A stretch of 64,000 bases of DNA, taken from contig JAHLWP010000015.1 in assembly GCA_019057865.1 (NCBI GenBank), positions 1 to 64,000 of the forward strand. Reading direction: 5' to 3'. This document shows positions 2,027-64,000 of the stretch, one piece after another. Positions within the stretch are counted from its first letter, which is position 1, and each line of letters begins with the position of its first letter. Under the pieces are notes generated by a model. It was given only the letters and a program-made list of their open reading frames with translations, ran no database searches and had not been told where the DNA came from. The DNA comes from Promethearchaeota archaeon (GTDB lineage Archaea; Asgardarchaeota; Lokiarchaeia; Sigyniarchaeales; SOKP01). Both the position numbers and the translations under genes were made by a program.

Positions 2027-2098
2027 AATTTGAGAAAACTTAATTTTATTTTCTAAATTATAGATCGTTTTCTTTTCTATTTATATCTATTTCATAGA

Positions 2099-2131
2099 AC
2101 TTCCATAAAAAATCGAAACTATCATGGAAGT
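2099..2131. promoter_or_regulatory. Inverted repeat ACTTCCAT-N17-ATGGAAGT upstream of TATA-like TTATAAA; candidate operator
   Basis: 8-bp perfect arms in the divergent intergenic region; identical copy at 9147-9179, variant at 10433-10461. Confidence 0.5.
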
Positions 2132-2245
2132 ATCGGAAGCTCAATTATAAAGGTAACTATATCTCAACATTTAATTGATCATCGTATTGATGATAAAACC
2201 AAATTTTTAAAAAAAAAAAAGAGTTGGATAAAAAAAATATTTGAG

Positions 2246-2944
2246 GTGAAAATGGTAGTGAAAAAGAAATCAAAAGTGACTACAGCACTGATTCCGGTAT
2301 TATTTTTAATAGGTATCATAGCAATTGTTACACCAGTGAACGCTTGTTACACTAATCGCATTTACATCATGGCAATAGGAGATGATCTAGATCTCCCTAG
2401 AACTAGTAATTTTATCATAGGGAACATTAAATTCAGTGGAGACAGTGAGCCCCCATCGGCAGGAGTATTTTTCTATTCAAAAATCTATGGTGAATCAGGT
2501 GAAAAATATGCGATGCTAGGAATGCTCAAAAATGGATTCCTTATAATGACCGATTTCGAATTTTATTGCCCAATCTTTGATGTCTGGTGGATTAACGTTT
2601 GGTGGGTCATGGGTGAGGGAATATTTAGAACTACTGATACCGATATCGAGGTATATTTTCGAGAGTCGCTTACAATAGCCATGCCAAATACCGAAGGTCA
2701 ATGCGTTCCAGCTTCCATTTTTATGTGGCTAAGCCCTACAGCTGAATATCGTGAATCGGAGGGTAATCCCACCGATCCCGAAAATCCCCTAAGACCAACA
2801 GGCCCAGTTAAAATTTGGGAACAAGGAGGATGGGCCCTTGCTGGGGTTTTTTGGGATGTTGGCATCCCTATGGATTTTGGGTTTGGAGTTGGTATATTGC
2901 CGATCGGTGTGATATCCTATTTGACAATATCCATAGGAATATGA
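2246..2944 (+). CDS. Secreted/surface protein, paralogue P1 (chimeric)
   Basis: Basic N-terminus, hydrophobic stretch and PVNA cleavage-like site; GAGGTGA RBS; homologous to 9294 and 10577. Confidence 0.8.
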   Translation: MKMVVKKKSKVTTALIPVLFLIGIIAIVTPVNACYTNRIYIMAIGDDLDLPRTSNFIIGNIKFSGDSEPPSAGVFFYSKIYGESGEKYAMLGMLKNGFLIMTDFEFYCPIFDVWWINVWWVMGEGIFRTTDTDIEVYFRESLTIAMPNTEGQCVPASIFMWLSPTAEYRESEGNPTDPENPLRPTGPVKIWEQGGWALAGVFWDVGIPMDFGFGVGILPIGVISYLTISIGI

Positions 2945-3328
2945 ATCCCATAACGCTAAGTCAATCGTAAGAGATAAAAAATAATGTAATATCTTAATTA
3001 AAATATAGAAAAAGAGAGGAACATGTTTAGATAATTGGCTTCTCGAATGACCACACCTAAACCAATATTCCTCCATTCTATATATCTTTTTTTTAATTAT
3101 TAAATTTAATGGACTATAGAATCTTTACACTATTGTATAATACACTAATTAAATTAATAATTATAACATTGATTTCAAACCCAATTTAAGTTAATATTAA
3201 TGGAGATAAACTCTCTTGAGCCTCTCATAAAAGAGATTTTTATTGCGAGAACTCTTCATTAAGCATTAGATTTAAAATTCTAATTAGCTTAATATTTCAT
3301 AAAGTTATAATCCAAATCAAATGAATAC

Positions 3329-5284
3329 ATGTCTCACATAGGGCTAAAGCAATTAACAAGAGCGGAACAGTTTTTTGATGCTGGTAAGCTTGATGAGGCT
3401 CTTGAAATATTAAACGATTGGAAGCAATTTGAGGGGCTTAATCCTCAGCAAAAAAACCATTTTCAGTTTCTTAAGGGCTTAATTCTATTTTATCAGAATA
3501 AAAGTGAAGAAGTTTCTAAATTGGGTGAACAGTTATTAAAAGAAGGGCAAAAACTTAATGAACCTCTCCAATCGGTTGATGGATATTTTTTTATAATCGT
3601 TGGACCAGGTCTAGCTAATAAATTTGACGAAGCATCCAAATTTCTTGAAAAAGCTGAAGGTTCGTTAAGGCTTATTTCTAATAGACCTAGAGATGTTTTA
3701 ATTCAAAGAGAAGTTCGTATAAGATTGGCAAAAGCATTTATTAATGTGTTTGGAGGTAATATAGAAATAGCAGAGAAGTGCGTAGACTGGATCTTAGGGT
3801 CACAAAAAGACCTTGGTATATCATTCGAAATTGTTTGGGCTAATATATTAATGGCACTAATAATGGGTAAAGCAAAAAGTAAATTTGATCTTGGTCTGGA
3901 ATACATCAAGAAAGCAATGTCAATAGCAAAGGAAATTAAATTTAACCACTTCTGGATTGCTATATGTCATCTAATTTTTGGGGCGTTATATAATGCTATT
4001 GGCGAATTTAATATTAGCTTGAAACATCATATGAAGTGTTTAGCGATATTTAAAGAAATTAACAACAGTTTCTATACTGCAGGAGCACTTAATAATATAG
4101 GATCCACCTATATTTCTATTGGTGATTATGATCTTGCTTTGGAATATTTAGAAGAAAGTTTATCATATTATGAAATCCAATCTATACAATTACAACTCCC
4201 TCTTGGTAATTTAATTGATGTGGCTCTGGAAATAGGAGATAATCAACGTGCGCAAAAATATTTTCAACGCTTAGAAGATATGTACAATCAAACAAAAGAT
4301 GAAGATGTCATTTTAATCTATCAATTCGCTAAAGCTTTAATGTTAAAAAGCAGTTCTCGAATCCGCGATAAAGCTAAAGTTGAAGAATTATTGAAAGAAG
4401 TCATCAAAACAGAAACTATTCGTTTTGATCTTATTATTTGCGCAATTATCCATCTTTGTGACTTGCTTCTTTTAGAATATCGTCTAAATAATAATAGTGA
4501 AGTACTTGATGAACTAAATCACTACATTGCTAAATTATTAACTATAGCTGAGAAATCACATTCATATCTAGTTTTTTGTGAAACATTCATATTACAAGCC
4601 AAATTAGCTTTAATAAATTTTAATCTGAAAGCAGCCCGACGATATTTAACTCAAGCTCAAAAGATAGCGGAATCATATGGTATAAAACGATTAGCAATGA
4701 AAATTTCACATGAGCATGATGAATTACTTAGACAAATAAAGATGTGGGAGAATTTAAAAGAATCAGAAGCGTCTTTATCTGAACGCTGGAAATTCGCTGG
4801 TTTGAACGAGCAAATGGAGAATATGGCAAGAAAACGAATGATTGAAGCTCCTAAGATCTCAGAAGAGGAGCCTGTTTCAATTTTAATCATAACCGAAGGG
4901 GGAACTTCTATATTTTCCCATTCCTTTATTAAAGATAAAGCATTTGAATCTCATATTTTTGGTGGTTTTATAACCACTATTGATTATTTTATTAGGGAAA
5001 TGTTTTCTGAAGGACTAGACCGCGCAATCTTTGGTGAATATACTCTTCTTATCAAATCTATTCCCCCTTTTTTTATTTCTTATATATTTAAAGGTGATTC
5101 TTATTATGCTTATCAGAAGATAACTTATTTTATTGATCATATCCAAAAAGAAGATGTTATTTGGCAAAATTTACTTAAATCTTTTCAAGTAAGCCAGTCT
5201 ATTCACTTAAAAGATATCCCCTTACTTGAATCCTTAATAACAGATACATTTATCACTAAAAATATCGTATCTAGTGAATTATAA
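3329..5284 (+). CDS. TPR-repeat protein with C-terminal longin-like domain
   Basis: TPRs (ALNNIGSTYISIGDYDLALEYLEESL); C-terminal ILIITEGGTSIFSHSF...HIFGGFITTIDYFIREMF resembles the longin fold start. Confidence 0.75.
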   Translation: MSHIGLKQLTRAEQFFDAGKLDEALEILNDWKQFEGLNPQQKNHFQFLKGLILFYQNKSEEVSKLGEQLLKEGQKLNEPLQSVDGYFFIIVGPGLANKFDEASKFLEKAEGSLRLISNRPRDVLIQREVRIRLAKAFINVFGGNIEIAEKCVDWILGSQKDLGISFEIVWANILMALIMGKAKSKFDLGLEYIKKAMSIAKEIKFNHFWIAICHLIFGALYNAIGEFNISLKHHMKCLAIFKEINNSFYTAGALNNIGSTYISIGDYDLALEYLEESLSYYEIQSIQLQLPLGNLIDVALEIGDNQRAQKYFQRLEDMYNQTKDEDVILIYQFAKALMLKSSSRIRDKAKVEELLKEVIKTETIRFDLIICAIIHLCDLLLLEYRLNNNSEVLDELNHYIAKLLTIAEKSHSYLVFCETFILQAKLALINFNLKAARRYLTQAQKIAESYGIKRLAMKISHEHDELLRQIKMWENLKESEASLSERWKFAGLNEQMENMARKRMIEAPKISEEEPVSILIITEGGTSIFSHSFIKDKAFESHIFGGFITTIDYFIREMFSEGLDRAIFGEYTLLIKSIPPFFISYIFKGDSYYAYQKITYFIDHIQKEDVIWQNLLKSFQVSQSIHLKDIPLLESLITDTFITKNIVSSEL

Positions 5285-5401
5285 CTTCTAAATTAAATAA
5301 ATGCTGTTTTTACCAAAATTCATTTAGCTAAAATTTTATATTTTACAATATCTAATTTTACATACAAGTATAATAAAATTTGAGAAACACTTACTGATTT
5401 A

Positions 5402-5956
5402 ATGACTAAAACTCAGGAATTTGGATTTAAGATATCTATAATAGGAGATGGAGGGGTCGGTAAAACATCTTTAATAAAAAAATTTACGAAAGGGACCTTT
5501 GAAAAAGATTATATTAAGACTATAGGTGCCCAATTTTCGAGATATGATAAAGAAATTAATGGGGATGCTATTAATTTAGTATTTTGGGACATAGCTGGCC
5601 AAGATGATTTTAATTTTTTACACCCTTTATTTTATAAAGAAAGTAGAGCCAGTATTATTGTATGTAGCCTTGAAGCAAATGATTTAGGTAATAATAGCTT
5701 TCTTCATATAAAGAATTGGTATAATGAATTAAGCAAGTATTGTGGCGATATTCCTGTAGTTTTATTTGCCAATAAATTTGATTTGGTGAATGAAAATAAT
5801 TTAAATGAACTTGAAATACAAGAAATTGTCAAAGAATATAATTTTCTTGGATACTATATTACTTCTGCAAAAACAGGACAGGGAGTAATAGAAGCATTTA
5901 ATGCAATTATTGAAAAATTATATTATAAATATAAAAAGTTATCCTCCCAGGAATAA
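5402..5956 (+). CDS. Rab/Ras-like small GTPase
   Basis: G1 GDGGVGKTS, G2 YIKTIG, G3 WDIAGQ, G4 NKFD, G5 TSAK; no C-terminal prenylation Cys. Confidence 0.95.
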   Translation: MTKTQEFGFKISIIGDGGVGKTSLIKKFTKGTFEKDYIKTIGAQFSRYDKEINGDAINLVFWDIAGQDDFNFLHPLFYKESRASIIVCSLEANDLGNNSFLHIKNWYNELSKYCGDIPVVLFANKFDLVNENNLNELEIQEIVKEYNFLGYYITSAKTGQGVIEAFNAIIEKLYYKYKKLSSQE

Positions 5957-7157: not shown

Positions 7158-9074
7158 TTAATAAAATTGTTCTATTTCTGTGAGAAAAAGATCTGCGATT
7201 GTGAGCCATTTGTGCTTTGTCTCAGGGTCAGATGTACTTTTCTTTGTTAAATCTTTACCTTTTTTGAGATTTTTAAGTGCTAAATCATAATTTTCAAGGG
7301 CTTTATAACAAATCCCTAATTTAATATAAGTTTGATAAATGTACCAATCATCACTTCCAATCACGATTGCTTTAAGGAATTTTTTTGTTGCTTCATCGTA
7401 CTCTTCAAAATACATCAAAATTTCACCATATGTATCCTGATAAATTCCATTTTCTGGTTCGCCTTTTATGAGGTTTTGAACAATTTTTATCGATTCCTCT
7501 TTTTTGTCTAAATATTGCATCCAATAAGCCTTATAGCAAATAAGATCATTATTATTTGGAAATTTTTGAATTAATTCATTAATTATCTTTAATCCTGCTT
7601 TAAGATTTTGCATTCTTTTAAAGACAGCTGCCTTTAGCATCTTAATATCCTTTTCACTTTCTGGAAAAATTTCTAGCATTTCTTCTAATAATTTTGTTGC
7701 TTCCTGGTATTGGTTAAAATACATCAAAATTCTTATCTTCAAATAGTAAAATTCAAGATTTTCTGGGTTTAATTCAATATCCTTATCAATTTTTTTTATC
7801 TGTTCTTCATATTGATTTTCTAAACTTTGAGAGATCTGTGCTTGAAAGAGATCTGTTATGTTCTGCCAAATTATTCCCTCTAATTTATCATAAGTTTCTT
7901 TTAATTCCTTTTTAGTCTCAATTTTATAAGCTAGATACTTAATATATTCTGGTAAAAACTCCCTTAATGATGTTTTCAAATCTTTATTAAATAAGAATTC
8001 ACATGCCGTATTTACAATATCATTTATGATAGATTTCATATCAATTGTAGGCACTTCTGGCGTTGGTTTTGAAAAAAGCTTATTCAAATAGGTGATTTTA
8101 GTGATTTGATTCTCTGTGATTACCCGAAATATTCTTTCTAATCTTCCATCTGATTGAAAGTAATATTGCTCACCTGATGGTTGTGTTAATTTGAAGAATC
8201 TTAATGGATATATTTTTCCTTCAGAAATTTCGTCAATATAGTAGTCTAGTGTAGTTTTCTTAATTTTATAGATTTCTGAGAAATCTTCAGAGGAAATATA
8301 GTTTGGATATTGATCTGGATGATTAATTGAAAGAAAAAGTAGGATTTTATGAAAAGTATCCTCGTCCTTTAATATTGGTTTTACTTTTTCATAATCTAAT
8401 CTTAATATATTGTTAAGAAATCTAAATTGTATATCCTCTTCTTTAATATTGTAATTCTCAAAAAATTTGATGGTTTTTTTAGTAATCTCCTCAATTCGTT
8501 TACCCTCCTCCTCTAAAATAGTTTGTCTATCTAAATCATAATTTTTAAGCATCCTTGAATACTCTGATTTACCTGCTCGGGTAATTATATATTTTCCATC
8601 CTCTTTTATTGCCAATTCCTTTTCTATTAATAAACTCAAATTCTTTGACAATGAAGATTGATTTATGAATACAGGTTCTTCAAGGAAGTCAGACCTTTTG
8701 CAATAATTATTATTATAAACCATCCAAAGTATCCAGTCAGAGTAATTTCTTCCACTTTTTAAGATAATTTTTGGAGGATAATTTGGCTTACGTGTCTTTT
8801 TCTCCGCACTTGATAACTCATGAAACTTCTTTTTCCCCTCTGAAGTGATTCTGTAATGCCCTCTTGAAAAATTTTCTACAAAACCCTTACGTTTTAATGT
8901 TTCTAAATGTCTAGATAAAGTACCTGTAGGAATTTCGATTGGTTCTTGACGAAAGTCTGCCCATTTACATGATTCATTATTATTCAACATCCAGAGAATA
9001 ATGTGGTCATAGTCCGGCTTTTTCAACTTGGAAGGGCTATAGATCTTTTCTGGAGGATAATTTATGATTCCCAT
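7158..9074 (-). CDS. Tandem wHTH + TPR protein, copy 2
   Basis: Same length (638 aa) and high identity to 110..2026. Confidence 0.8.
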   Translation of the reverse strand: MGIINYPPEKIYSPSKLKKPDYDHIILWMLNNNESCKWADFRQEPIEIPTGTLSRHLETLKRKGFVENFSRGHYRITSEGKKKFHELSSAEKKTRKPNYPPKIILKSGRNYSDWILWMVYNNNYCKRSDFLEEPVFINQSSLSKNLSLLIEKELAIKEDGKYIITRAGKSEYSRMLKNYDLDRQTILEEEGKRIEEITKKTIKFFENYNIKEEDIQFRFLNNILRLDYEKVKPILKDEDTFHKILLFLSINHPDQYPNYISSEDFSEIYKIKKTTLDYYIDEISEGKIYPLRFFKLTQPSGEQYYFQSDGRLERIFRVITENQITKITYLNKLFSKPTPEVPTIDMKSIINDIVNTACEFLFNKDLKTSLREFLPEYIKYLAYKIETKKELKETYDKLEGIIWQNITDLFQAQISQSLENQYEEQIKKIDKDIELNPENLEFYYLKIRILMYFNQYQEATKLLEEMLEIFPESEKDIKMLKAAVFKRMQNLKAGLKIINELIQKFPNNNDLICYKAYWMQYLDKKEESIKIVQNLIKGEPENGIYQDTYGEILMYFEEYDEATKKFLKAIVIGSDDWYIYQTYIKLGICYKALENYDLALKNLKKGKDLTKKSTSDPETKHKWLTIADLFLTEIEQFY

Positions 9075-9293
9075 AATTTGAGAAAACTTAATTTTATTTT
9101 CTAAATTATAGATCGTTTTCTTTTCTATTTATATCTATTTCATAGAACTTCCATAAAAAATCGAAACTATCATGGAAGTATCGGAAGCTCAATTATAAAG
9201 GTAACTATATCTCAACATTTAATTGATCATCGTATTGATGATAAAACCAAATTTTTAAAAAAAAAAAAGAGTTGGATAAAAAAAATATTTGAG

Positions 9294-9935
9294 GTGAAAA
9301 TGGTAGTGAAAAAGAAATCAAAAGTGACTACAGCACTGATTCCGGTATTATTTTTAATAGGTATCATAGCAATTGTTACACCAGTGAACGCTTGTTACAC
9401 TAATCGCATTTACATCATGGCGAAAGGGGATGACGAAGATATTGCTGGAGCTACTACTTCAATCATAGCAATGATTGAATTCGATAAAGCTAGCGGCATC
9501 CCTTCAGTGGCACAAGTAGAATTCCAAACAAAAATTTATGATGAATCAGGAGAGAAAATTTATTCGATGAAGGGAAAGCTTATAGATGGTTTAATAATAA
9601 GCGATAGCTTTCAATTTTATTGCACAGTACGAGAAGTCACGTGGATTAACCTTTGGTTTATCATGGGTGAGGGAAGACTTAAAACTACTGATACAGTTAT
9701 CGAGATAGAATATCGAGGGCAAACAATAACCTTGCCAAATACGGAAGGTCAATATATTCCATTTTCCATTTTTATGATGGTAAGCCCTAAAGGTGAATAT
9801 GTTTTAGGTGAAGATCCCGAAGTTTTTATTTGGCCACAAGGAGGATGGGCTACTGCTGGAATTATGGTTGGTGGAATCCCGAGCTTCGGTGTGGTAACCT
9901 ATTTGACAAAATACATGGAAAAATTGGTCCCTTAA
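9294..9935 (+). CDS. Secreted/surface protein, paralogue P2
   Basis: First 43 aa identical to P1, then diverged; shares KIY.ESGEK, WIN.W..MGEG..TTDT, PNTEG, W.QGGWA. Confidence 0.8.
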   Translation: MKMVVKKKSKVTTALIPVLFLIGIIAIVTPVNACYTNRIYIMAKGDDEDIAGATTSIIAMIEFDKASGIPSVAQVEFQTKIYDESGEKIYSMKGKLIDGLIISDSFQFYCTVREVTWINLWFIMGEGRLKTTDTVIEIEYRGQTITLPNTEGQYIPFSIFMMVSPKGEYVLGEDPEVFIWPQGGWATAGIMVGGIPSFGVVTYLTKYMEKLVP

Positions 9936-10029
9936 CACTAAGTCAAGCGTAACAGATAAGAAATATATTCTAAAATCTTTTTTTTTTTTTTTCATCTCAT
10001 TTTAAATTAAATATAGGATTGAATGTGTT

Positions 10030-10299
10030 GTGCTAGAACAAACATTTCTAAATAATAACTCTTCTAACTTCACAATCCTACACTTCACAATCCTACACTG
10101 TATCATAACTGATAAAGTCACGGGTGAAATATTACAACATTCCATTTACGGAGATACTTCAAGGGACTATCGGATTAACGAACTTTCTGAACAGTATATA
10201 ACAAACTTCAAGACTCATAAAATACCTACAACCTATTTAGTTAGTATTTACAGGAGAGGTTTCTTTATAGGTGATTTTACCTTTACTACAGTCAAATAA
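10030..10299 (+). pseudogene. Short ORF or gene remnant with an in-frame 15-bp tandem duplication
   Basis: ACTTCACAATCCTAC x2 at 10067-10096 (FTILH FTILH); no recognisable family or RBS. Confidence 0.3.
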
Positions 10300-10576
10300 A
10301 TTCTAATTCCAAACTTTTTTTTTAAATATTCTCATCCTACAAATTTTTTCGAACTAGTTTTTCACATCAATTTTTTTTTCACTTTGTCATCTTACTCTGG
10401 CATACATGAGGCAATTTATTAAATTTTCTTTTCTTCCATAAAGAATCGAAAGTTCCATGGATATATCGGAAGCTCAATTATAAAGGTAATTCTATCTCAA
10501 CCTTTAATTAGTCATCATAAAGATGATAAAACCTAAAATTAAAAAAAAAAGAGTTGAATAAAAAGAAATATTTGAG

Positions 10577-11239
10577 GTGAAAATGATAGTGAAAGAGAAA
10601 TCAAAAGTGACTAAAGCACTGATCGCGGCATCATTTTTAATATGTATCATAGCAATTGTTACACCAGTGGTGGCGGCTAATACTAATCGCGTCTTCTTCG
10701 TAGCAATAGGAGATGATCTAGATATCCCTGGAACTACTAATATTATCATAGGGAAGATTAAATTCGGTGGAGGCAATGAGCTCCCATCGGCGCGAGTAGT
10801 TTTCCATTCAAAAATCTATGATGATTCAGGTGAAAAAGTGTATACTATGATAGGAATGCTCAAAGATGGATATCTTATGGACACCAGCTTTTCATTTTTT
10901 TGCCCACTCTTTAAAGTCTGGTTTATTAACGTGTGGCAAGTCATGGGTGAGGGAAAGTTTAGAACTACTGATACCAATATCGAGGTATATTTTCGAGATT
11001 TGCTTACAATAACCATGCCAAATACTGAAGGTAAATTTGTATCAGCACCGATTTTAATGTTACTAAGCCCTACAGCTGAATATAGAAATGGTGATCCAAT
11101 AACTGGACCGATAGGGCCAGTTAAAATTTGGGAACAAGGAAGATGGGCCCTTGCTGCGGTTATATGGTATGTTCCTGAAATTGGTGATTATTTGCCGATC
11201 GGTCCGCTATCCTATTTGACAATATCCATAGGAATATGA
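10577..11239 (+). CDS. Secreted/surface protein, paralogue P3
   Basis: Signal peptide; body closest to P1; own copy of the promoter (10433-10576). Confidence 0.8.
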   Translation: MKMIVKEKSKVTKALIAASFLICIIAIVTPVVAANTNRVFFVAIGDDLDIPGTTNIIIGKIKFGGGNELPSARVVFHSKIYDDSGEKVYTMIGMLKDGYLMDTSFSFFCPLFKVWFINVWQVMGEGKFRTTDTNIEVYFRDLLTITMPNTEGKFVSAPILMLLSPTAEYRNGDPITGPIGPVKIWEQGRWALAAVIWYVPEIGDYLPIGPLSYLTISIGI

Positions 11240-11623
11240 ATCCCATAACGCTAAGTCAATCGTAAGAGATAAAAAATAATGTAATATCTTAATTAAAATA
11301 TAGAAAAAGAGAGGAACATGTTTAGATAATTGGCTTCTCGAATGACCACACCTAAACTAAAATTCCTCCATTCTATATCTCTTTTTTTGTATTATTAAAT
11401 TTATTGAACGATAGAATCTTTACAATATTGTATAATACAAAAATTATACTTATAATTATAACATAGATTCAAAACTCGATTTAAGTTAATCTTAATGGAA
11501 ATAAACTCTTTAGAGCCTCTCATAAAAGAGATTTTCATTGCGAAGATTCTTCATTAAGCATTAGATTTAAAATTATATTTACCTTAATATTTCATAAAGC
11601 TATAATCCAAATCAAATGAATAT

Positions 11624-13588
11624 ATGTCTCACCCAGGGCTAAAGCAATTAACAAGAGCAGAGCAACTTTTTGATGATGGTAATCTTGAAGAGGCTCTTGA
11701 AATTCTAAATGATGAGAGTCATTTTGAGGGGCTTAATCTTCAGCAAAAAAGTTATTTTCAGTTTCTTAAGGGATTAATTCTCTTTTTTCTTAATAAAGGG
11801 GAAGATCTCATTAGTTTAGGCGAGACAATTTATAAAGAAGGTCAAAAATGTAATGATAATCTCCAATCTTTTGATGGATTATTTTTTATTATTACTGGAT
11901 TAGCTATAGCTGGTAAATTTGAGGAAGCGTTCAATTTTTTTAAAGAAATTGAATCATTAATAAAGTCTATTTCAAATGTGTCTAAAGAAATTATAACTCA
12001 AAGAAAAGCTCGTCTAAGTGTAGCAAAAGCTTTTGTTGGATTGCATGGTGGTAAAGTAGATTTGGTTGAGACGTCTTTAGAGTGGATCTTAGATTCACAA
12101 GAAAAATTCGAGAAATCATTCGAAATCGTCTGGGCTAATCTTCTAATGGCGAGTTATTTAGTACGAGTAAAAAGCAAGTTTGATCTTTGTAGGGAGCACA
12201 TCAAAAAAGCATTATCTCTTGCAAAGGAAATTAAATTTAATCACTACTGGATTGCTCTGTGTCAACTCTATTTTGGAGTATATTATATATCTATTGGCGA
12301 AATGGATAAAAGCTTGAAATATAACATAAAGGGTTTAGAATTATTTAAAAAGATAAAGAGTAGTTTTAATGTTGCACTTCTATTAAATAATATTGGGAAT
12401 TTATATGGTGAAATGAGTGAATATGAACTTGCTGTGGAACATTTAGAGGAGAGTATAAATCTTTTAGAGCAGATTCCTCAAAGTTTTTTTTCTATTGAAG
12501 GCACTATTGAAAGTTTAATAACCTTAGCCGTTGAACATGGAGATAACGAACGTGCTCAAAAATATTTTCATCGTTTGGAAGATATTTATAACCAAAAAAG
12601 AGACGATAGAATTGAATTTCTTTACAAATTTGATAAAGCCCTAATTTTAAAAACAAGTTCTCGAATCCGAGATAAAGCAAAAGCAGAAGAATTATTCAAA
12701 GAACTCATAGAAACTGATACTATAGCTTTTGATCTTATTATAAAAGCTCATATCCATCTTTGTGACATACTTCTCACGGAATATCGTATTAATAATGATA
12801 GTGAGATTTTTACCGAATTGAATTATTACATTTCCAAATTATTGACTATCGCGGAGAAACAACATTCGTATATTGTTTTTTGTGAAACCTTCATACTTCA
12901 AGCCAGATTAGCTCTACTAAATTTTGATATAAAATCGGCTCGACTGTTTTTGACTCAAGCACAGAAGATAGCAGAGTCCTATAGCATGAAACGCTTAGCA
13001 ATGAAAATTTCACATGAACATGATGAATTACTTAGACAAATAAAGATGTGGGAGAATTTAAAAGAATCAGAAGCGTCTTTATCTGAACGCTGGAAGCTCG
13101 CTGGTCTGAACGAGCAAATGGAGAATATGGTAAGAAAACGAATGATTGAAGCTCCTAAGATCTCAGAAGAAGAGCCTGTCACAATTTTTATCATAACAGA
13201 AGGAGGGTCAACTTTATTCTCCCACTCATTTATTGATCAAAAATCTTTTGAATCACATCTTTTTGGCGGTTTCTTAACAACTATTGATTATTTTATTAGG
13301 GAAATGTTTTCTGAAGGACTAGACAGCGCAATCTTCGGTGAATATACTCTTCTTATGAAATCTATTCCACCTTTTTTTATTTCTTATATATTTAGAGGTG
13401 ATTCTTATTATGCTCATCAGAAGATAAATTATTTTATCGATCATATCCAAAAAGAAGATGTTATTTGGCAAAATTTACTTAAATCTTTTCAAATAAGCCA
13501 GTCTATTCACTTAAAAGATATTCCCTTACTTGAATCCTTAATAACAGAAATATTTATCACTAAAAGTATTGTATATAGTGAATTATAA
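11624..13588 (+). CDS. TPR + longin-like protein, copy 2
   Basis: Homologous to 3329..5284; TPR part diverged, C-terminal third highly similar. Confidence 0.75.
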   Translation: MSHPGLKQLTRAEQLFDDGNLEEALEILNDESHFEGLNLQQKSYFQFLKGLILFFLNKGEDLISLGETIYKEGQKCNDNLQSFDGLFFIITGLAIAGKFEEAFNFFKEIESLIKSISNVSKEIITQRKARLSVAKAFVGLHGGKVDLVETSLEWILDSQEKFEKSFEIVWANLLMASYLVRVKSKFDLCREHIKKALSLAKEIKFNHYWIALCQLYFGVYYISIGEMDKSLKYNIKGLELFKKIKSSFNVALLLNNIGNLYGEMSEYELAVEHLEESINLLEQIPQSFFSIEGTIESLITLAVEHGDNERAQKYFHRLEDIYNQKRDDRIEFLYKFDKALILKTSSRIRDKAKAEELFKELIETDTIAFDLIIKAHIHLCDILLTEYRINNDSEIFTELNYYISKLLTIAEKQHSYIVFCETFILQARLALLNFDIKSARLFLTQAQKIAESYSMKRLAMKISHEHDELLRQIKMWENLKESEASLSERWKLAGLNEQMENMVRKRMIEAPKISEEEPVTIFIITEGGSTLFSHSFIDQKSFESHLFGGFLTTIDYFIREMFSEGLDSAIFGEYTLLMKSIPPFFISYIFRGDSYYAHQKINYFIDHIQKEDVIWQNLLKSFQISQSIHLKDIPLLESLITEIFITKSIVYSEL

Positions 13589-13669
13589 CTTCTAAATTAA
13601 AGAAATGCTGTTATATACAAAATTCATTTAGCTAAAATTTTATATTATACAATATCTAATTTTACATTA

Positions 13670-14224
13670 ATGACTAAAACTCAGGAATTTGGATTTAAGA
13701 TATCTATAATTGGAGATGGAGGGGTCGGTAAAACATCTTTAATAAAAAAATTTACGAAAGGGACCTTTGAAAAAGATTATATTAAGACTATAGGTGCCCA
13801 ATTTTCAAGATGTGATAAAGAAATTAATGGGGATGTAATTAATTTAATATTTTGGGATATAGCAGGTCAAGATGATTTTAATTTTTTACATCCTTTATTT
13901 TATAAAGAAAGTAGAGCCAGCATTATTGTATATAGCCTTGAAACAAATGATTTAGGTAAATATAGCTTTCTTCATATAAAGAATTGGTATAATGAATTAA
14001 ACAAGTATTGTGGCGATATTCCTGTTGTTTTATTTGCCAATAAATTTGATTTGGTGAATGAAAATAATTTTAATGAACTTGAAATTCAAGAAATTGTCAA
14101 AAAATATAATTTTCTTGGATACTATATTACTTCTGCAAAAACAGGACAAGGTGTAATAGAAGCATTTAATGCAATTATTGAAAAATTATATTATAAATAT
14201 AAAAAATTATCCTCCCAGGAATAA
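13670..14224 (+). CDS. Rab/Ras-like small GTPase, copy 2
   Basis: All G motifs intact; 10 aa differences from 5402..5956. Confidence 0.95.
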   Translation: MTKTQEFGFKISIIGDGGVGKTSLIKKFTKGTFEKDYIKTIGAQFSRCDKEINGDVINLIFWDIAGQDDFNFLHPLFYKESRASIIVYSLETNDLGKYSFLHIKNWYNELNKYCGDIPVVLFANKFDLVNENNFNELEIQEIVKKYNFLGYYITSAKTGQGVIEAFNAIIEKLYYKYKKLSSQE

Positions 14225-16681: not shown

Positions 16682-16987
16682 TCACATTAACTCAATCTCT
16701 ACTAGAACAGATTCAGGAATCTGAATCTTCATAATAAGATGCATACTTCTCTCATTAGCAATGATTTCAAAAAGACGTTTATGAATTCTCATTTCGAACT
16801 TAGCCCAAGTGCTCGTTCCCTGGCCAGAGGGCGATTTTCGAACAGGCACACGTAATCGTTTAGTAGGCAAAGGTATTGGTCCATGTTTTTTGATCCCTTG
16901 ACTCTTGCATACATTTTCAATTTGGTCACATACAGATTGTAATGCTCCTAATTCTGTCGATGATAAACGTATGCGTGCTTTCTGTAT
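16682..16987 (-). CDS. rpsJ: 30S ribosomal protein uS10, extended to an ATA start (101 aa)
   Basis: (M)QKARIRLSS...GPIPLPTKRL.VP.RKSP.G.GT.TW..FEMRIHKR; ATA at 16987 with GGTGA 7 nt upstream and an in-frame TAA two codons upstream. Confidence 0.92.
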   Translation of the reverse strand: MQKARIRLSSTELGALQSVCDQIENVCKSQGIKKHGPIPLPTKRLRVPVRKSPSGQGTSTWAKFEMRIHKRLFEIIANERSMHLIMKIQIPESVLVEIELM

Positions 16988-17112
16988 TTTTTATTCACCA
17001 AGGGAATTTATTTAAAATTTACGGTTTTAACTCTTACTCTAACTATTTAATGTAATATCGATAATAATTGCTATTAAATAAATTTTTTTATCTAACCTCC
17101 TTTTGAATAAAA

Positions 17113-26675: not shown

Positions 26676-27926
26676 TTATGGAAAAATACCTCTTAATTCA
26701 ACAGCTTTTGCTACTCGAGAAAGAGCAATAATATAAGCGGCTGTCCTTAAGATTAAATTCTTCTCTTTTGAGATTTTGTACACGTTTTCAAATGCATCTA
26801 CAATAATTTTTTTTAATTCTTTATTGACACGATCTAAACTCCAAAAGTAACTGTGTATATCTTGAATATATTCAAAATAAGATACGCAAACACCACCCGC
26901 ATTAGCCAAAATATCTGGAATCACAAAGATTCCTTTATTATGTAGAATTTTATCTGCTTCTGGAGTTGTTGGACCATTTGCACCTTCTAAAATAATCTTA
27001 CAATTTATTTTATCAGCATTAATATTAGTTATTTGATTCTCCAAAGCTGCTGGAACCAACACGTCGCATTTTGTAGTAAGTAATTCTTCGTTTGAAATAT
27101 GCTTATAATTATTTTTGTTAAAGTCTCTTAAAAATTTTCCTTGATCTCTCCATTCTAATAATTCTTTAATGTTTAAACCTTTTTCTGAATAAATTCCACC
27201 GAAGATATCTGAAACTGCAAATATTTTACTACCATAGTTATATAATATGTTAGCAATCCATCCTCCAACATTCCCAAATCCTTGAATTATAATGCTCATG
27301 GATTTCAAATCGTAATTTAATTTATTACATAATGCTTCAAGCACATAAAACATGCCCATACCAGTAGCACTATCTCTACCCACAGATCCTCCTATTTCTA
27401 TTGGTTTTCCAGTAACAACTCCAGGTATAGTTCGTCCTTTTTGCATGCTATATACGTCCATGATCCATGCCATGATTTGTGCATTAGTATTAACATCTGG
27501 TGCAGGGATATCGATATCTGGACCAATAAAATTTATAATTTCAGCTGTATATCTTCTCGTAAGTCTTTCTAACTCTTTTTTAGATAATTTTAAAGGATCT
27601 ACGAATATACCTCCTTTTGCTCCTCCAAAAGGTAAATTCAAGAGACTACTTTTCCAAGTCATCCATATTGCTAAAGCCTTTACTTCATCAAGAGTAACAT
27701 TTAGAGAATATCGTATACCTCCTTTCCCAGGTCCTCTAATTGTTGAATGATGAACTCTATATCCTTCAAAAATTTTCAACTTACCATCATCCATCATAAT
27801 CGGAATAGAAACAATTAGGGAGCGTTCTATCCGCTTTAAATATGGAACAATATTTGAGTCCAAATCCATAACTTCTGCTACAATATCTATCTGTTTTTTT
27901 GCCATTTCATAAGGATTTATAGCTAT
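26676..27926 (-). CDS. gdhA: Glutamate dehydrogenase (ATA start at 27926 likely; ATG alternative at 27905)
   Basis: GPGKGGIRY, GGAKGG, DIPAPD, TGKP, GFGNVG, PD.LANAGGV.VSYFE. Confidence 0.95.
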   Translation of the reverse strand: MAINPYEMAKKQIDIVAEVMDLDSNIVPYLKRIERSLIVSIPIMMDDGKLKIFEGYRVHHSTIRGPGKGGIRYSLNVTLDEVKALAIWMTWKSSLLNLPFGGAKGGIFVDPLKLSKKELERLTRRYTAEIINFIGPDIDIPAPDVNTNAQIMAWIMDVYSMQKGRTIPGVVTGKPIEIGGSVGRDSATGMGMFYVLEALCNKLNYDLKSMSIIIQGFGNVGGWIANILYNYGSKIFAVSDIFGGIYSEKGLNIKELLEWRDQGKFLRDFNKNNYKHISNEELLTTKCDVLVPAALENQITNINADKINCKIILEGANGPTTPEADKILHNKGIFVIPDILANAGGVCVSYFEYIQDIHSYFWSLDRVNKELKKIIVDAFENVYKISKEKNLILRTAAYIIALSRVAKAVELRGIFP

Positions 27927-27973
27927 TTTATTTCACCTTAAGATTTTTTCATAATAAATTAAAATTTAAGCAA

Positions 27974-29242
27974 TTAGGGAAATAATCCTCTTAATTCATG
28001 TGCTTTAGCTAATCTTTTTGCGCCAATAGCGAATGCTGCTATCCTAAGTGAAGTATTCATTTTTTTTGATAAATTATATACATCCTCAAAAGTTTTAATA
28101 ATAATATTTTTCATTTCTCTATTAACACGATCTAATCCCCAGAAATAACTGTGTATATCTTGAATATATTCAAAATATGAAACACATACTCCCCCGCTAT
28201 TTGCAAGAATATCTGGAACGATAATTACGCCCTTCTCATTCAAGATGGCGTCCGCTTGGGAAGTTGTTGGACTATTTGCGCCTTCCAATATGATTTTACA
28301 ATCTATATTATCAGCATTTTTACTGTAAATTTGATTCTCAACCGCAGCAGGGATCAAGACATCACATTTTAAACTAAGTAATTCATCATTGGTTATAGTA
28401 CTAATATTTTTTCCATTATAATCTTTAAGTGAATTCCCTTGTTGCTTCCATTTAATTATTTCGTTAATATCTAATCCGTCTGGTGAGTATATCCCTCCTT
28501 GTTTTTCAGAAACTGCAATGACATTACATGAAATTTCACATAACTGTTTAGCAACAACCGATCCCACTTTTCCAAATCCTTGAATCACAATTTTCATTTT
28601 TTTTAAATCAAAATTTAGTTTCTGGCAAATGTGTTTAAGTAGATAACCCATTCCAGTTCCAGGGGCTTCAAGTCTTCCAACAGAACCCCCTATTTCAATT
28701 GGTTTACCAGTTACTACGCTTGGGATAGTTCGACCCTTTTGCATACTATATGTATCCATGATCCAAGCCATTGTGGTTGAATCAGTATACATATCTGGTG
28801 CTGGAATATCTATATCTGGGCCAATCATACTTATGATTTCAGCAGTATATCTTCTAGTCAATCGTTCTAATTCTTTTTTCGATAATTCTTTAGTATCTAC
28901 GCAAACTCCCCCTTTAGATCCTCCTAAAGGTAAATTTAAAAGACTTGTCTTAAATGTCATTAAAAACGCTAAAGCTTTAATTTCGTCAAGAGTAACATCT
29001 GGAGAATATCTTAAACCTCCTTTTGCTGGACCTCGTAAAGTTGAATGATGAACTCTGTAACCTTCAAAAATTTTAAGAAAACCATCATCCATAACTATAG
29101 GGATGGAAACTATTAGTGAACGTTCAACCTTTTTTAGATATTCTAAAGTATTTGGATTTAAATTTATTAGTTCCGCAGCAATATCAAGTTTCTTTTTAGC
29201 ACTTTCAAACGGATTTATTATCAATATTTTCACAATATACAA
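27974..29242 (-). CDS. gdhA: Glutamate dehydrogenase paralogue
   Basis: Same motifs, with variants GRLEAPG, GFGKVG and AVSEK; start may be the TTG at 29224. Confidence 0.93.
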   Translation of the reverse strand: MYIVKILIINPFESAKKKLDIAAELINLNPNTLEYLKKVERSLIVSIPIVMDDGFLKIFEGYRVHHSTLRGPAKGGLRYSPDVTLDEIKALAFLMTFKTSLLNLPLGGSKGGVCVDTKELSKKELERLTRRYTAEIISMIGPDIDIPAPDMYTDSTTMAWIMDTYSMQKGRTIPSVVTGKPIEIGGSVGRLEAPGTGMGYLLKHICQKLNFDLKKMKIVIQGFGKVGSVVAKQLCEISCNVIAVSEKQGGIYSPDGLDINEIIKWKQQGNSLKDYNGKNISTITNDELLSLKCDVLIPAAVENQIYSKNADNIDCKIILEGANSPTTSQADAILNEKGVIIVPDILANSGGVCVSYFEYIQDIHSYFWGLDRVNREMKNIIIKTFEDVYNLSKKMNTSLRIAAFAIGAKRLAKAHELRGLFP

Positions 29243-29380
29243 TTATTTTTATGATAATTAACTTAAATTGTGATCAATATTTAAAATTAAATTTTTTTTA
29301 AAAAAATTAGGATTTATTTGTAGAGAATATGTTTTTGTTTAATAAATTCTTAAAATTTATAAAAAATTTTCATCTAAAAA

Positions 29381-30646
29381 TTATAACCAACCACGTAATT
29401 GCATAGCATCTACAACCCTCCCAACTGCTATTATATAAGCACCCATTCGATTGTGAGTATTATATTCTTTTGCTTTATCAACTGTAGAACGATATGCCTT
29501 AGTCATCACACGATCCAAAGCTGTAAATACTTCCTTTTCATCCCAGAAATATTGATAATATCCTTGGACCATTTCGAAATATGAAACAGTAACTCCTCCC
29601 GCATTACATAAAAAGTCAGGAATCACGAAAATTTCATTCTTAGATAAAATTTGATCTCCTGCAGGTGTAGTTGGTCCATTTGCAAGTTCTGCAACAATCT
29701 TACAATTTAATTTTTCTGCATTCTTTCGTGTTATAACATTTTCAAGTGCAGCAGGAATTAAAATATCACATTCTAATTCTAATAATTCTTCATTGGTTAT
29801 CATTTGAGCATCTTTTAGACCTACCAATGTTGATGTTTTTTCCTTTTGAACCAAAGCCTTGTTAGGATCGATACCATCCTTATTATATATTCCACCCTTG
29901 GAATCAGATATTGCAATAATTTTACAATTAAAATCTTGCGTTAAGATTTTAGAAGCCCAAGATCCGGCATTTCCAAATCCTTGTATAACTACCTTTGCAC
30001 CATTTAGATTTAATTCGATATCTTTTGCAGCTTCTCTAATACAAAACGCGCCACCTTTAGCTGTCGAGATTAGACGTCCAGCACTTCCACCTAAAGGCAA
30101 AGGTTTTCCAGTAATTACAGCAGGTGCATGTTTACGCATAATTGTTTCGTATTCATCCATCATCCACGCCATAATCTGAGGGTTAGTATAAACATCAGGT
30201 GCAGGTACATCAATTGAAGGTCCAATTATATCAGCTAATTTTCTAATATAATTTCTTGCAAGTATTTCAAGTTCTCTATTACTCATCTCTTTAGGAGTAC
30301 AAATAATTCCTCCTTTAGCACCTCCTAATGGAATATCCACACAGGCACATTTCCAAGTCATCCAAGCAGATAGAGCTTTAACAAGAGCAGCACTTTCATC
30401 GGGATGCCATCTAATTCCCCCTTTCATTGGCCCTCTCGCTGAGTTATATTGACTCCTAAAACCCTTAAATGTTTGCAAAGATCCATTGTCCATTCTCATA
30501 GTTATTTTTATTTCGACAAATCTTTCTGGCTGATTCAAAGCCTTATAAATTTCTCTATCACAACTCATTAACTTACAGGCTGTGTAAAGCTGAATTTGAG
30601 AAATCTGAAAAGGATCTAAATTTTCACTATCTTTTAACTTTTCCAT
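29381..30646 (-). CDS. gdhA: Glutamate dehydrogenase
   Basis: GPMKGGIRWHP, GGAKGG, DVPAPD, GFGNAG, AISDSKGG. Confidence 0.95.
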   Translation of the reverse strand: MEKLKDSENLDPFQISQIQLYTACKLMSCDREIYKALNQPERFVEIKITMRMDNGSLQTFKGFRSQYNSARGPMKGGIRWHPDESAALVKALSAWMTWKCACVDIPLGGAKGGIICTPKEMSNRELEILARNYIRKLADIIGPSIDVPAPDVYTNPQIMAWMMDEYETIMRKHAPAVITGKPLPLGGSAGRLISTAKGGAFCIREAAKDIELNLNGAKVVIQGFGNAGSWASKILTQDFNCKIIAISDSKGGIYNKDGIDPNKALVQKEKTSTLVGLKDAQMITNEELLELECDILIPAALENVITRKNAEKLNCKIVAELANGPTTPAGDQILSKNEIFVIPDFLCNAGGVTVSYFEMVQGYYQYFWDEKEVFTALDRVMTKAYRSTVDKAKEYNTHNRMGAYIIAVGRVVDAMQLRGWL

Positions 30647-30653
30647 AATTTAG

Positions 30654-33386: not shown

Positions 33387-33387
33387 C

Positions 33388-34272
33388 CTATGATACCTCA
33401 CGTTCATATTTTTCTAAAGCTCTACATTCCTCCTCATAACATTCTAAAGATTCTTTTTCTTGAGCAAGAAATCTATTAGCGCGTTTTAGTAGATTATCAA
33501 AATTAACAATATGTCCATCAACATCAGGACCATCTACACACGCAAATTGGATATCTCCATCAATAGTGGAAAAACGACAACCTCCACACATTCCAGTTCC
33601 ATCAATCATAATAGTATTCAAAGAAACATAAGTCTTTACTTTAGGTAAATCACCAGATCCATTAGTAGTAAGAGCGACAAATTTCATCATGATTAGAGGT
33701 CCAATCGCAATTACAATACTAATTTTCTCTCTTTTTAGTATATCTTTAAGTGGTTCAGTAACAACTCCCTTCCTTCCTTCAGTCCCATCATCAGTACAAA
33801 TGATTAATTCATCACTTACAGAACGCATTTTTTCTCTCCAAAATAGTAAACTTGTGTTTCTTGCACCCATTATTGTAATTATTTTATTTCCTGCTTCCTT
33901 TAATTCTTTCACTTGAGGATAACATGGAGCAATTCCAACACCACCCCCAATTATTATTACAGGAAATTCATACTTTTGAATGTGAATTCTATTTCCTAAA
34001 GGTCCAACAACATCAAGGATCTTATCACCTACATTTTGATGAGACAATAATTTAGTACTTTTCCCGATAACCTGAAAAACAATAGTTATTATTCCTTTTT
34101 CTCTGTTATAATCTGCGATTGTTAATGGAAATCTTTCACCAGTTTCATTTATTCTTAATAATATGAAATTTCCAGCATATGCTTTTTGAGCGATTAGTGG
34201 AGTGTGAAGAACCATTTCGAATAGTAATCCACTAGTCCCAAATTCCCTTTTCTCTAATATTTCATATGGCAA
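33388..34272 (-). CDS. nfnA: NfnA/SudB (NADH-dependent ferredoxin:NADP+ oxidoreductase small subunit)
   Basis: ERFPLTIAD, GPLG, GGGVGIAP, MIDGTGMCGGCR...CVDGP. Confidence 0.9.
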   Translation of the reverse strand: MPYEILEKREFGTSGLLFEMVLHTPLIAQKAYAGNFILLRINETGERFPLTIADYNREKGIITIVFQVIGKSTKLLSHQNVGDKILDVVGPLGNRIHIQKYEFPVIIIGGGVGIAPCYPQVKELKEAGNKIITIMGARNTSLLFWREKMRSVSDELIICTDDGTEGRKGVVTEPLKDILKREKISIVIAIGPLIMMKFVALTTNGSGDLPKVKTYVSLNTIMIDGTGMCGGCRFSTIDGDIQFACVDGPDVDGHIVNFDNLLKRANRFLAQEKESLECYEEECRALEKYEREVS

Positions 34273-50872: not shown

Positions 50873-51157
50873 TTAGAGTTGATAGTCTCTTCTTAACCCA
50901 ATAAGGGTTGTTGTTGCTTCAGTCCATTGTTGTAACTCCTCATCACTTCTAAAAAAAGAGATAATTTTTTCCATATCTTCTAGGTTATTAATAACACATT
51001 CTACTAACAAATCCCACGCTCCGTATAATGGGGTTGCGTATGTAATTTTCCAATCCTCATCCGAGCTAATCGGTCTTAATTGCTGTATTTTTTCAATAAC
51101 TTTCAGCTGAGTCCCAATTATTTTTAGCCGGATTAGAATATATCCACGAAAATAAAT
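50873..51157 (-). CDS. Stand-alone Lrp/AsnC ligand-binding (RAM)-like domain, 94 aa, ATT start
   Basis: (M)YFRGYILIRL...YATPLYGAWDLLVE...TEATTTLIG; absent from the ORF track; no ATG/GTG/TTG between the upstream TAA and codon 50. Confidence 0.75.
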   Translation of the reverse strand: MYFRGYILIRLKIIGTQLKVIEKIQQLRPISSDEDWKITYATPLYGAWDLLVECVINNLEDMEKIISFFRSDEELQQWTEATTTLIGLRRDYQL

Positions 51158-61934: not shown

Positions 61935-62166
61935 AAAATCATCTTGTATATAATTGTAATATTTTTAGATGTATTAGTTATTAAATTTTTATAATTACAT
62001 GTAAGTTAACCCTGTAATTACTATTATTATTTTTAATGAGCTAATATGTATCTTATATACGAGATACATTCATTAAGAATAATTATTTCATAAAAATTAT
62101 TTAAAAACTGTATATTTTTTCTAGTTAAAATTTATCTTAAAATAAAAAAAATTAAGTGAAATAAAA

Positions 62167-64000
62167 ATAAAAGAGAATAACATCAATATAATTAAAACTG
62201 GTTGTTGTCATGACTGTGGTGGACGATGTGTTCTTAGAGTACATGTTAAAGATGGTAAAATCATAAGAATTGAAACTGACAATGGAGAAGAACCTCAATT
62301 AAGAGCCTGTGTACGTGGAAGAGCCTATAGACAAAGAGTTTATTCCCCAGATAGACTAAGATATCCTCTGCGCCGTAGTGGTGAACGAGGTGAAGATAAA
62401 TTTGAACGGATTTCATGGGATGAAGCTCTTGAAATAGTCGCTTCCAAACTTATAGAAATTAAGGAAAAATATGGTAATTCCGCTATACTATTGGTTCCAG
62501 GTGGTGGAAACCAGGGGATGATTCATGGAATCATACCAATTGCTATAATGTTACATCAAATTGGAGGATATACTAGAATGTGGGGAGCTCCTTCATATGA
62601 AGGGGCATTATTTGCCTCGATGGCGACTTATGGAACAATGATGACTGGTAATGCGCGTGAAGATCTATTAAATTCAAAACTCATTATTATGTGGGGCTGG
62701 AATCCTGCTAACACAATTTGGGAACCTGGAACAAGTCTAATGTTAGCTAAAACTAAAGAGAAAGGAATTAAAATAATAGCTATAGATCCTATCTTTACAG
62801 ATTCAGCGGCAATACTTGCTAATCAATGGATTCCAATTCGACCAGGTACTGATACGGCAATATTAATTGCGATGGCTTACACAATTATTAAAGAAAATCT
62901 TCAGGATCAAGCCTTTTTAGATAAATATACTGTTGGATTTGATAAATTCAAGGAATATGTAATGGGAGAAGAAGACGGTGTTGAAAAAACACCACAATGG
63001 GCAGAGAAAATTACATCTGTACCTTCAGAGGTTATTGAAGACTTAGCACGGGAATATGCCACTTCTAAACCAGCGGCTCTTATAGCAGGGTGGGGTCCTG
63101 CGAGAACTGCCTTTGGAGAACAATATTCCCGCGCTGCTAATGTGCTTTGTGCTATTACAGGGAACATTGGAATTAATGGGGGTTATGCCTCTGGTTTTAT
63201 GAGAGCATATTATAGTCGTGAGCGGATAGTACCTGGAGGGAAAAAAACGAGAGATATTTCTACTATAGAAGAAATGCCAAAAAAACCAAGATTACAAGAT
63301 AATCCGGTTGATTTTAGGGCTCCACCTCGTAAAGATGCTTTATATAAAATAAAAGGTGGGACAAATCCTGCAAACACTAGAATTCACTATAATGATTATT
63401 ATGAAGCAATTCTACAAGGAAAAAAAGCAGGTTACCCTGCTGATATTAAAATGGCTTATATTGCAGGAACAAACCGATTAAACCAGTTTAGTAATGTAAA
63501 TAAAGGTGTTAAAGCTTTTAAATCACTTGAATTTATAGTTATTCATGAACAATTTTTGACACCTACAGCGAAATTTGCTGACATTATTTTGCCAGTAAAT
63601 ACTTTCATGGAACGTAATGATGCTGCTGTCCCTTGGCTTGGTTCTCCTTATTATATTTATTTGAATAAAGCTATTGATTCCATGTATGAATCAAAATCTG
63701 ATCTAGAAATATGCCGGGAGCTTTTAAAAAGAATGGGTATTAAATCAAGTCTTTTAGATCTGAATGAGGATCAAATATTAAGGCTATTTATAGCTCCACG
63801 AAAGGACATTAAAAATTATAATAAAATGAGAAGAGATGGTTATTATAAAGTTAAAGTTGAGGAGCCATTTGTAGCATTTAAAGATCAAATAGAGGATCCT
63901 GAGAACAAACCCTTTCCTACTTTATCAGGCAAAATTGAAATATATTGTGAACATATAGCAGAAAAAAATATTCCCTTAATGCCACCAATTCCAAAATATT
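62167..64000 (+). CDS. Second DmsA-like Mo/W-bisPGD oxidoreductase, partial (runs off window); ATA start inferred
   Basis: TGCCHDCGGRC...RACVRG, DRLRYP, RISWDEA, WGWNP, PGTD, TPTAKFADIILP, SGKIE; in-frame TAA at 62143-62145; first TTG only at 62491. Confidence 0.9.
   Translation, partial: MKENNINIIKTGCCHDCGGRCVLRVHVKDGKIIRIETDNGEEPQLRACVRGRAYRQRVYSPDRLRYPLRRSGERGEDKFERISWDEALEIVASKLIEIKEKYGNSAILLVPGGGNQGMIHGIIPIAIMLHQIGGYTRMWGAPSYEGALFASMATYGTMMTGNAREDLLNSKLIIMWGWNPANTIWEPGTSLMLAKTKEKGIKIIAIDPIFTDSAAILANQWIPIRPGTDTAILIAMAYTIIKENLQDQAFLDKYTVGFDKFKEYVMGEEDGVEKTPQWAEKITSVPSEVIEDLAREYATSKPAALIAGWGPARTAFGEQYSRAANVLCAITGNIGINGGYASGFMRAYYSRERIVPGGKKTRDISTIEEMPKKPRLQDNPVDFRAPPRKDALYKIKGGTNPANTRIHYNDYYEAILQGKKAGYPADIKMAYIAGTNRLNQFSNVNKGVKAFKSLEFIVIHEQFLTPTAKFADIILPVNTFMERNDAAVPWLGSPYYIYLNKAIDSMYESKSDLEICRELLKRMGIKSSLLDLNEDQILRLFIAPRKDIKNYNKMRRDGYYKVKVEEPFVAFKDQIEDPENKPFPTLSGKIEIYCEHIAEKNIPLMPPIPKY

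Follow-up and report, generated by a model that had tools for sequence, protein, structure and literature searches.

The window analyzed here is the whole stretch of 64,000 nucleotides, corresponding to bases 1-64000 of contig C25 in a metagenome assembly of 4.26 Mb (30% G+C, 99.7%-complete; genome G000) from an uncultured Asgard archaeon of the Loki type. Its minus strand carries rpsJ, the gene for ribosomal protein uS10, with the following features:

16682..16987, minus strand: rpsJ (ribosomal protein uS10) coding sequence, 101 codons plus a TGA stop (16684-16682), with a predicted ATA start
16985..16987, minus strand: predicted initiation codon ATA of rpsJ, at the aligned start column in relatives
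16991..16993, minus strand: in-frame TAA, two codons 5' of the rpsJ ATA, with AAA (16990-16988) between
16995..16999, minus strand: Shine-Dalgarno (SD) motif GGTGA, 7 nt before ATA and complementary to the 16S rRNA 3' end
17009..17016, minus strand: TTTAAATA box lying 23-30 nt 5' of the rpsJ ATA, conserved in position among relatives

The ATA at 16987, the GGTGA 7 nt 5' of it, and the TAA two codons 5' all read as an earlier, sequence-only reading of this DNA had described them. The codons that follow the ATA (CAG AAA GCA CGC ATA CGT TTA, read directly from the minus strand) encode QKARIRL. The in-frame TAA excludes any start upstream of the ATA, and the first ATG, GTG, or TTG (the canonical start codons) in the frame is a TTG at 16870, 39 codons downstream of the ATA; the canonical ORF encodes only 62 amino acids. 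Started at ATA, the protein is a full-length family match to Pfam PF00338 (Ribosomal_S10), in which residues 5-99 cover profile positions 1-98 of 98 with a score of 96.1 bits against a cut-off of 21.2. The sequence-only reading had remarked that rpsJ does not adjoin the gene for EF-1alpha (which indeed lies on another contig) and had suggested that it could be a secondary copy. That suggestion is refuted by the copy count, which gave a single Ribosomal_S10 match in the genome; there is likewise one in nearly every relative among the 30 related genomes searched. The rpsJ described here is the primary, sole, and essential S10 copy.

The rpsJ start column in related genomes

The S10 survey covered the 30 related genomes and 80 further species, and the N-terminus could be aligned in 85 loci. 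The start column in these loci holds ATA (51), ATG (21), GTG (7), TTG (3), ATT (2), or ACC (1), ATA thus being found in 51 Promethearchaeota species. The motif GGTG stands at the same spacing as here in 44 of 63 related loci and at 7-8 nt in 52 of the 63 close relatives; 28 of them have an in-frame stop two codons 5' of the start column. Among the 51 ATA-bearing species, each of the nine codons 3' of the ATA always specifies the same amino acid, although as many as six synonymous codons are used; codons -1 to -7 are variable and include stops, codon -2 being a stop in 26 of the 51. A conservation boundary located exactly at the ATA, combined with exchanges for canonical start codons in the same column elsewhere, is start-codon behavior as judged from the alignment, and argues that the ATA acts as a start codon. 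The comparison establishes both the position of this start and its conservation.

These data bear on the possibility that S10 is a shortened protein whose true start is a downstream canonical codon, either TTG 16870 or, in relatives, a TTG at Leu-7 (TTG in 30 of the 51 ATA-bearing species), the conserved codons 5' of it being left untranslated. Public S10 calls of 94, 89, and 76 amino acids are consistent with such starts and are found together with full-length calls of 101 amino acids beginning MQKARIRL, among them the protein of G000 itself. In the genome studied here, however, Leu-7 is TTA; a start at TTG 16870, which has no preceding SD, would cost about 36 of the 98 profile positions of the only S10, and codons 1-7, being invariant in amino acid with synonymous changes, have the character of translated sequence. 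A downstream start is therefore considered very improbable. Initiation at GTG inside GGTGA followed by a frameshift into the S10 frame was also considered, and was rejected since no slippery run is conserved among relatives in the interval between them.

ATG and ATA differ by a single G-to-A, so the ATA could in principle stand for an ATG that was misread in sequencing or assembly, or be changed at the RNA level to an AUG-like codon (for example, by A-to-I editing). The recurrence of ATA in 51 species, derived from many independent projects and assemblers, excludes a base-calling error; as for editing, the commonest non-canonical start in the genome (see below) is ATT, followed by ATA and ATC, and editing of A cannot yield ATT or ATC. 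Either form of this explanation is regarded as extremely improbable. In a gene tree of S10 the ATA state is clustered, requiring about six changes compared with 27 when the labels were shuffled, although with 300 columns the tree is a rough guide only. A well-supported clade nested within the ATA group has returned to ATG and has lost GGTGA.

Other non-canonical starts in the window

The sequence-only reading also held that non-canonical ATA and ATT starts recur in this window; they do, and they occur genome-wide as well, in dependence on SD motifs. The further sites that it named belong to the following genes:

26676..27926, minus strand: glutamate dehydrogenase gene, candidate ATA start at 27926-27924, alternative ATG at 27905
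50876..51157, minus strand: gene for a small conserved protein of 93 amino acids, ATT at 51157-51155 behind GGTG (51169-51166) at 8 nt
62167..63999, plus strand, continuing past the window: molybdopterin oxidoreductase gene, ATA at 62167 behind GTGA (62156-62159) at 7 nt

The predicted ATT start at 51157 is strongly supported: in 30 loci of the genus the column holds ATT (21) or ATC (9), GGTG lies 7-8 nt upstream, and a stop codon is found directly upstream in nine of the 30. A Pfam search with the 93-aa protein gave no match, and so lends no support to the Lrp/AsnC-like fold that had been assigned to it. For the molybdopterin oxidoreductase gene, the site is upheld by domain integrity. The Fe4S4 domain corresponds to residues 10-60 of the protein started at ATA 62167, and relatives align from residues 1-5; the first canonical codon (TTG 62491) comes 108 codons later, and a start there would remove the Fe4S4 domain, so a non-canonical start is needed. 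On the basis of the paralog, the domain limits, and the SD position, ATA 62167 is the best-placed and most likely start, and a second ATA at 62161 may be an alternative.

The remaining site, 27926, is plausible but not forced. Its ATA has AGGTGA (27938-27933) 6 nt upstream and a TGA three codons upstream, and it aligns with a TTG in the neighboring paralog, which also has in-frame TTG and GTG codons further upstream. The glutamate dehydrogenase Pfam domains begin at residue 34 of the ATA-started protein, and neither dehydrogenase domain would be cut by a start at the in-frame ATG seven codons 3' of the ATA, so ATA is not required; the paralog, the domain limits, and the SD position make it a plausible start.

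Two of these genes have paralogs nearby. The glutamate dehydrogenase gene is one of three tandem paralogs on the minus strand (26676-27926, 27974-29242, and 29381-30646; 39%-71% identical N-terminally), which adjoin, within the region 26676-33407 on the same strand, a gene for a 917-aa fusion of FrhB-like, 4Fe-4S, and pyridine-nucleotide oxidoreductase domains. Two divergent molybdopterin-oxidoreductase paralogs, at 59685-61934 (minus strand) and from 62167 onward (plus strand), are approximately 51% identical N-terminally; one has ATG and the other ATA. In the window there is also a block of about 7 kb that is duplicated in tandem (110-5956 and 7158-14224, the copies 82%-96% identical) and encodes a winged-helix and TPR protein, a MalT-like TPR protein, and a Ras-family small GTPase, a type of gene typical of Asgard archaea. 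ATT codons at 2186 and 9234, each with TGATC at 7 nt in a duplicated ORF, were tried as candidate starts and rejected; the copies are identical at this point, there is no family match, and GTG and ATG codons lie downstream.

Spacing of start codons behind Shine-Dalgarno motifs

The 3' end of the 16S rRNA (contig C77) reads ...GGATCACCTCCT. A genome-wide spacing test used all 5-mers of GGAGGTGAT as SD motifs and tallied the codon at each downstream distance. To be counted, a codon had to open at least 120 codons of open frame and to have no in-frame canonical codon upstream; for a non-canonical codon, the next ten codons were additionally required to be free of canonical ones. A peak was found at 6-7 nt behind the 5-mers, made up of ATG (113), TTG (32), ATT (29), GTG (16), ATA (16), and ATC (6). 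The codons ATT, ATA, and ATC (collectively ATH) thus account for 51 sites at this distance compared with about 10 expected (approximately 6, 3, and 1, from distances 13-24). Control codons that are equally common (AAA, AAT, TTA, TAT, TTT, GAA, and GAT) have no spacing peak (p = 3e-12, odds ratio 6.9).

The pattern was reproduced in 1.6 Mb of sequence from G023, another species of the genus, which gave seven ATT and seven ATA where about one of each is expected, with 31 ATG and 19 TTG. In 1.2 Mb of a genome of another Loki family (G032), in which rpsJ starts with ATG, the counts were ATG 40, TTG 7, GTG 2, ATT 2, ATA 2, and ATC 0; the ATH share there (4 ATH versus 49 canonical) is lower than in the genus (p = 0.006), a comparison that draws on 1.2 Mb of one outgroup genome. 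The counts establish the SD dependence of ATH starts and their enrichment in the lineage.

When ORFs down to 80 codons are included, starts behind 5-mer SDs exceed the background by about 44 for ATH versus 242 for canonical codons; with 4-mer SDs, and allowing for phase, the ATH excess is about 80-85. The 4-mer profile is noisy, with a three-base periodicity derived from coding sequence, and the 5-mers were relied on for that reason, although an estimated 40%-45% of the 5-mer list of ATH candidates is background. From these figures, ATH would make up roughly 15%-24% of strongly SD-led starts, or about 45-85 genes; assuming some 3,800 genes (estimated from 4.26 Mb), ATH starts would be used by roughly 1%-2% of genes.

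Fourteen of the 71 strongest ATH candidates are operon-internal, following a gene of the same strand whose end is no more than 20 nt away, and an SD in that position must be on the mRNA. An SD of even a 4-mer is found at only one third of confident canonical starts, compared with 17% at internal control positions; this low share agrees with the statement in a review that SD sequences are rare in Lokiarchaea (PMC12993045). Of the ATH starts that were defined by conservation alone, about 10 of 11 have an SD (a hand count of listings). What these counts show is the usage of ATH codons at SD spacing; in the earlier proposal that this lineage has relaxed, SD-guided start selection, the loosened mechanism is an inference.

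The TTTAAATA box upstream of rpsJ may be a TATA box or a leader element. If it is a TATA box, transcription would begin close to the ATA, so that GGTGA would be untranscribed, in conflict with a role as SD; the rpsJ mRNA would be leaderless, its ATA read as a 5'-terminal start and GGTGA a promoter-proximal element. TTTAAATA is conserved at -30 to -23 in relatives, and archaeal TATA boxes usually stand at this distance from the start of the transcript. A faint T-then-A pattern is seen at -33 to -19 in SD-less genes of the genome, and the rarity of SDs in Lokiarchaea (PMC12993045) also fits leaderless transcripts. However, GGTGA matches the 16S rRNA 3' end and is located at the spacing where ATG starts peak, and many SD-led starts (the 14 ATH candidates among them) are located at, or inside, the 3' end of the preceding gene, with no separate promoter geometry; moreover, further TATA-like boxes occur farther upstream of rpsJ. 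A genome-wide scan for TATA-like motifs relative to starts gave no clear positional peak. A leaderless rpsJ mRNA is judged quite improbable, and SD-led initiation at the ATA is the reading preferred here.

A comparison of stop-to-stop ORFs of G000 and G023 comprised 1050 ortholog pairs. SD-backed ATH codons occupy the same column in both genomes in eight pairs under a strict filter and in about 12 of the 1050 by eye. All nine SD-backed ATT candidates with an alignment reaching the start face ATT (4), ATG (3), ATA (1), or ATC (1) in G023. At least ten conserved codons 5' of the first canonical codon in both genomes are found in 49 of the 1050 pairs, and in the 31 gap-free pairs of those 49 the mismatches by codon position (146:103:271) follow a coding pattern. 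Shorter N-terminal extensions (10-13 codons), on the other hand, often consist of conserved promoter DNA and not of coding sequence. One ORF on contig C30 (plus strand, from index 71515, 324 codons) has coding-type conservation with G023 from 29 codons 5' of its first canonical codon; at SD distance behind GGATGA/GGGTGA it has AAA (G000) or AAG (G023), and not ATT, ATA, or ATC.

Initiation factor aIF1 and the proposed decoding of ATH starts

The sequence-only reading had pointed to aIF1, the start-codon fidelity (proofreading) factor, as a gene to inspect, and aIF1 itself starts at ATT:

G000 contig C77, ATT at 24804, minus strand: aIF1, the only SUI1-family gene, with a stop upstream and AGGTTGTGA before the ATT

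After a TGA, the aIF1 frame reads AAA GAG AGT ATT AAA GAC GAC GAC ATT TGT CCA, with AGGTTGTGA in front; no canonical codon occurs until 39 codons past the ATT, within the SUI1 domain. Among 64 distinct metagenome loci (80%-99% identical), the start column holds ATT in 62 and ATC in two. A stop lies 2-4 codons upstream in all 64, and in four of them the entire ORF lacks a canonical codon. The aIF1 proteins of more distant Loki archaea begin with M or V four residues earlier (MRRRIKDDD..., VRERIKDED...), so that the start seems to have been shifted onto a pre-existing Ile codon. The genes for aIF1A, aIF2-beta, PCNA, and EF-1alpha have ATG starts in G000.

The sole aEF-2 gene (contig C82, 40493-41092, minus strand) is interrupted, after the AHIDHGKTT motif and before ERGITI, by a 30-nt in-frame insert with a TAA. 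Seven of 24 genomes of the genus have this insert, and in an eighth (G018) it is 60 nt long and includes three stops; it is absent from all 16 genomes examined of three other families. In both G000 and G023 it is predicted to adopt the same bulge-helix-bulge-like fold, and its excision restores ...QMTDSD joined to DEEQERGITI. The insert is most likely a tRNA-type mini-intron in an mRNA.

The following mechanism is proposed for the ATH starts. GGTGA would pair with the 3' end of 16S rRNA and set the rpsJ ATA in the ribosomal P site, where initiation would go ahead despite the third-position mismatch; more generally, Met-tRNAi would decode ATT, ATA, and ATC once the SD has fixed the P site. Taken together, the sequence evidence makes it highly probable that rpsJ is translated from ATA 16987 in an SD-led manner, and that such starts are a fixed habit of the genus, in which about 1%-2% of genes, aIF1 included, start at ATH.

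A changed decoder, in the form of a modified or different first base of the initiator anticodon or of a second initiator-like tRNA, would be another way of making ATH starts efficient. Precedent exists in mitochondria, where a modified C34 lets tRNA-Met read AUA, and it can be argued that initiation at the ATA of S10, a protein needed stoichiometrically, is not weak. The genome carries a tRNA-Ile(UAU) gene on contig C41 (minus strand, 172466-172621; 156 nt, including a long intron), and the way AUA is read in elongation may bear on its role as a start; this tRNA, however, scores as an ordinary elongator. Neither ARAGORN (19 tRNAs) nor Rfam RF00005 (28) detected an initiator or CAU tRNA in the assembly, and searching it for patterns of the anticodon arm and acceptor stem of archaeal initiators gave no usable match, so that these searches provide nothing in favor of a variant initiator. 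Detectable tRNA genes number only 19-28, many of them containing introns. The use of T, A, and C alike as third base fits a general third-position tolerance better than it fits one new anticodon, and a changed decoder is considered unlikely; SD-led placement of the ATH codon in the P site is preferred.

Initiation of this kind has bacterial counterparts. In Escherichia coli, infC (encoding IF3) has a near-cognate AUU behind a normally spaced SD on the gene of a fidelity factor, much as aIF1 has its ATT here, and pcnB is another bacterial gene with an SD-led start of the AUU/AUA type. The autoregulation of infC depends on its AUU; autoregulation of aIF1 would follow by analogy. In contrast to the infC and pcnB cases, the organism studied here is an archaeon with eukaryote-type factors (aIF1, aIF1A, and aIF2), and the starts involve tens of genes, including one for a ribosomal protein, compared with a handful in bacteria. 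The behavior of AUU and AUA mRNAs in bacterial initiation has been described in vitro (PMC5499595).

A second parallel is offered by eukaryotic near-cognate initiation and by eIF1, the eukaryotic homolog of aIF1, for which autoregulation via a poor initiation context is attributed to Ivanov et al. (2010), cited as reference 55 in PMC6237735. In both cases negative feedback would result, since the factor that controls start selection has a weak start of its own; eIF1, however, keeps AUG, weakens the context, and depends on scanning, whereas the aIF1 gene has ATT as the codon and relies on an SD to position it. Mitochondria use the same three start codons (ATA, ATT, and ATC), but with a modified tRNA-Met and no SD. 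NCBI translation table 11 also permits ATA, ATT, and ATC as starts, although this is permission only.

Near-cognate starts have left their mark on public annotation. The aIF1 of these organisms is represented by calls beginning MKDDDICP... (105-113 amino acids, named YciH-like) as well as by shortened calls of 84 and 70 amino acids, and G000's own aIF1 is present in public collections only as the 70-aa fragment. The contention that standard gene callers truncate or miss genes of this lineage is borne out by the shortened S10 and aIF1 calls, but it does not extend to every case, as the existence of full-length 101-aa S10 calls demonstrates. A literature search found no paper on ATT, ATA, or ATC starts in Asgard archaea or on their systematic use in an archaeal lineage, and no public record or paper was found that treats ATH starts as a lineage trait. 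Gene finders restricted to ATG, GTG, and TTG would cut or misplace the N-termini of about 1%-2% of proteins, and such N-terminal errors affect structure prediction, phylogenomics, and the marker-gene sets used for Asgard archaea; the finding is thus relevant both to researchers on translation and to those annotating Asgard genomes.

Asgard archaea have a eukaryote-type initiation machinery. By analogy with the AUU of bacterial IF3, an ATT start would make aIF1 self-limiting, and genes with ATH starts would respond jointly to the level of aIF1. It is tentatively suggested that the ATT of aIF1 forms a feedback loop that sets the stringency of start selection, and that the 45-85 ATH genes, including the one for the sole uS10, may constitute a translational regulon following the aIF1 level. 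Routine SD-guided ATH starts on aIF1 and on an essential ribosomal protein would make this lineage a natural system for the study of start-codon stringency.
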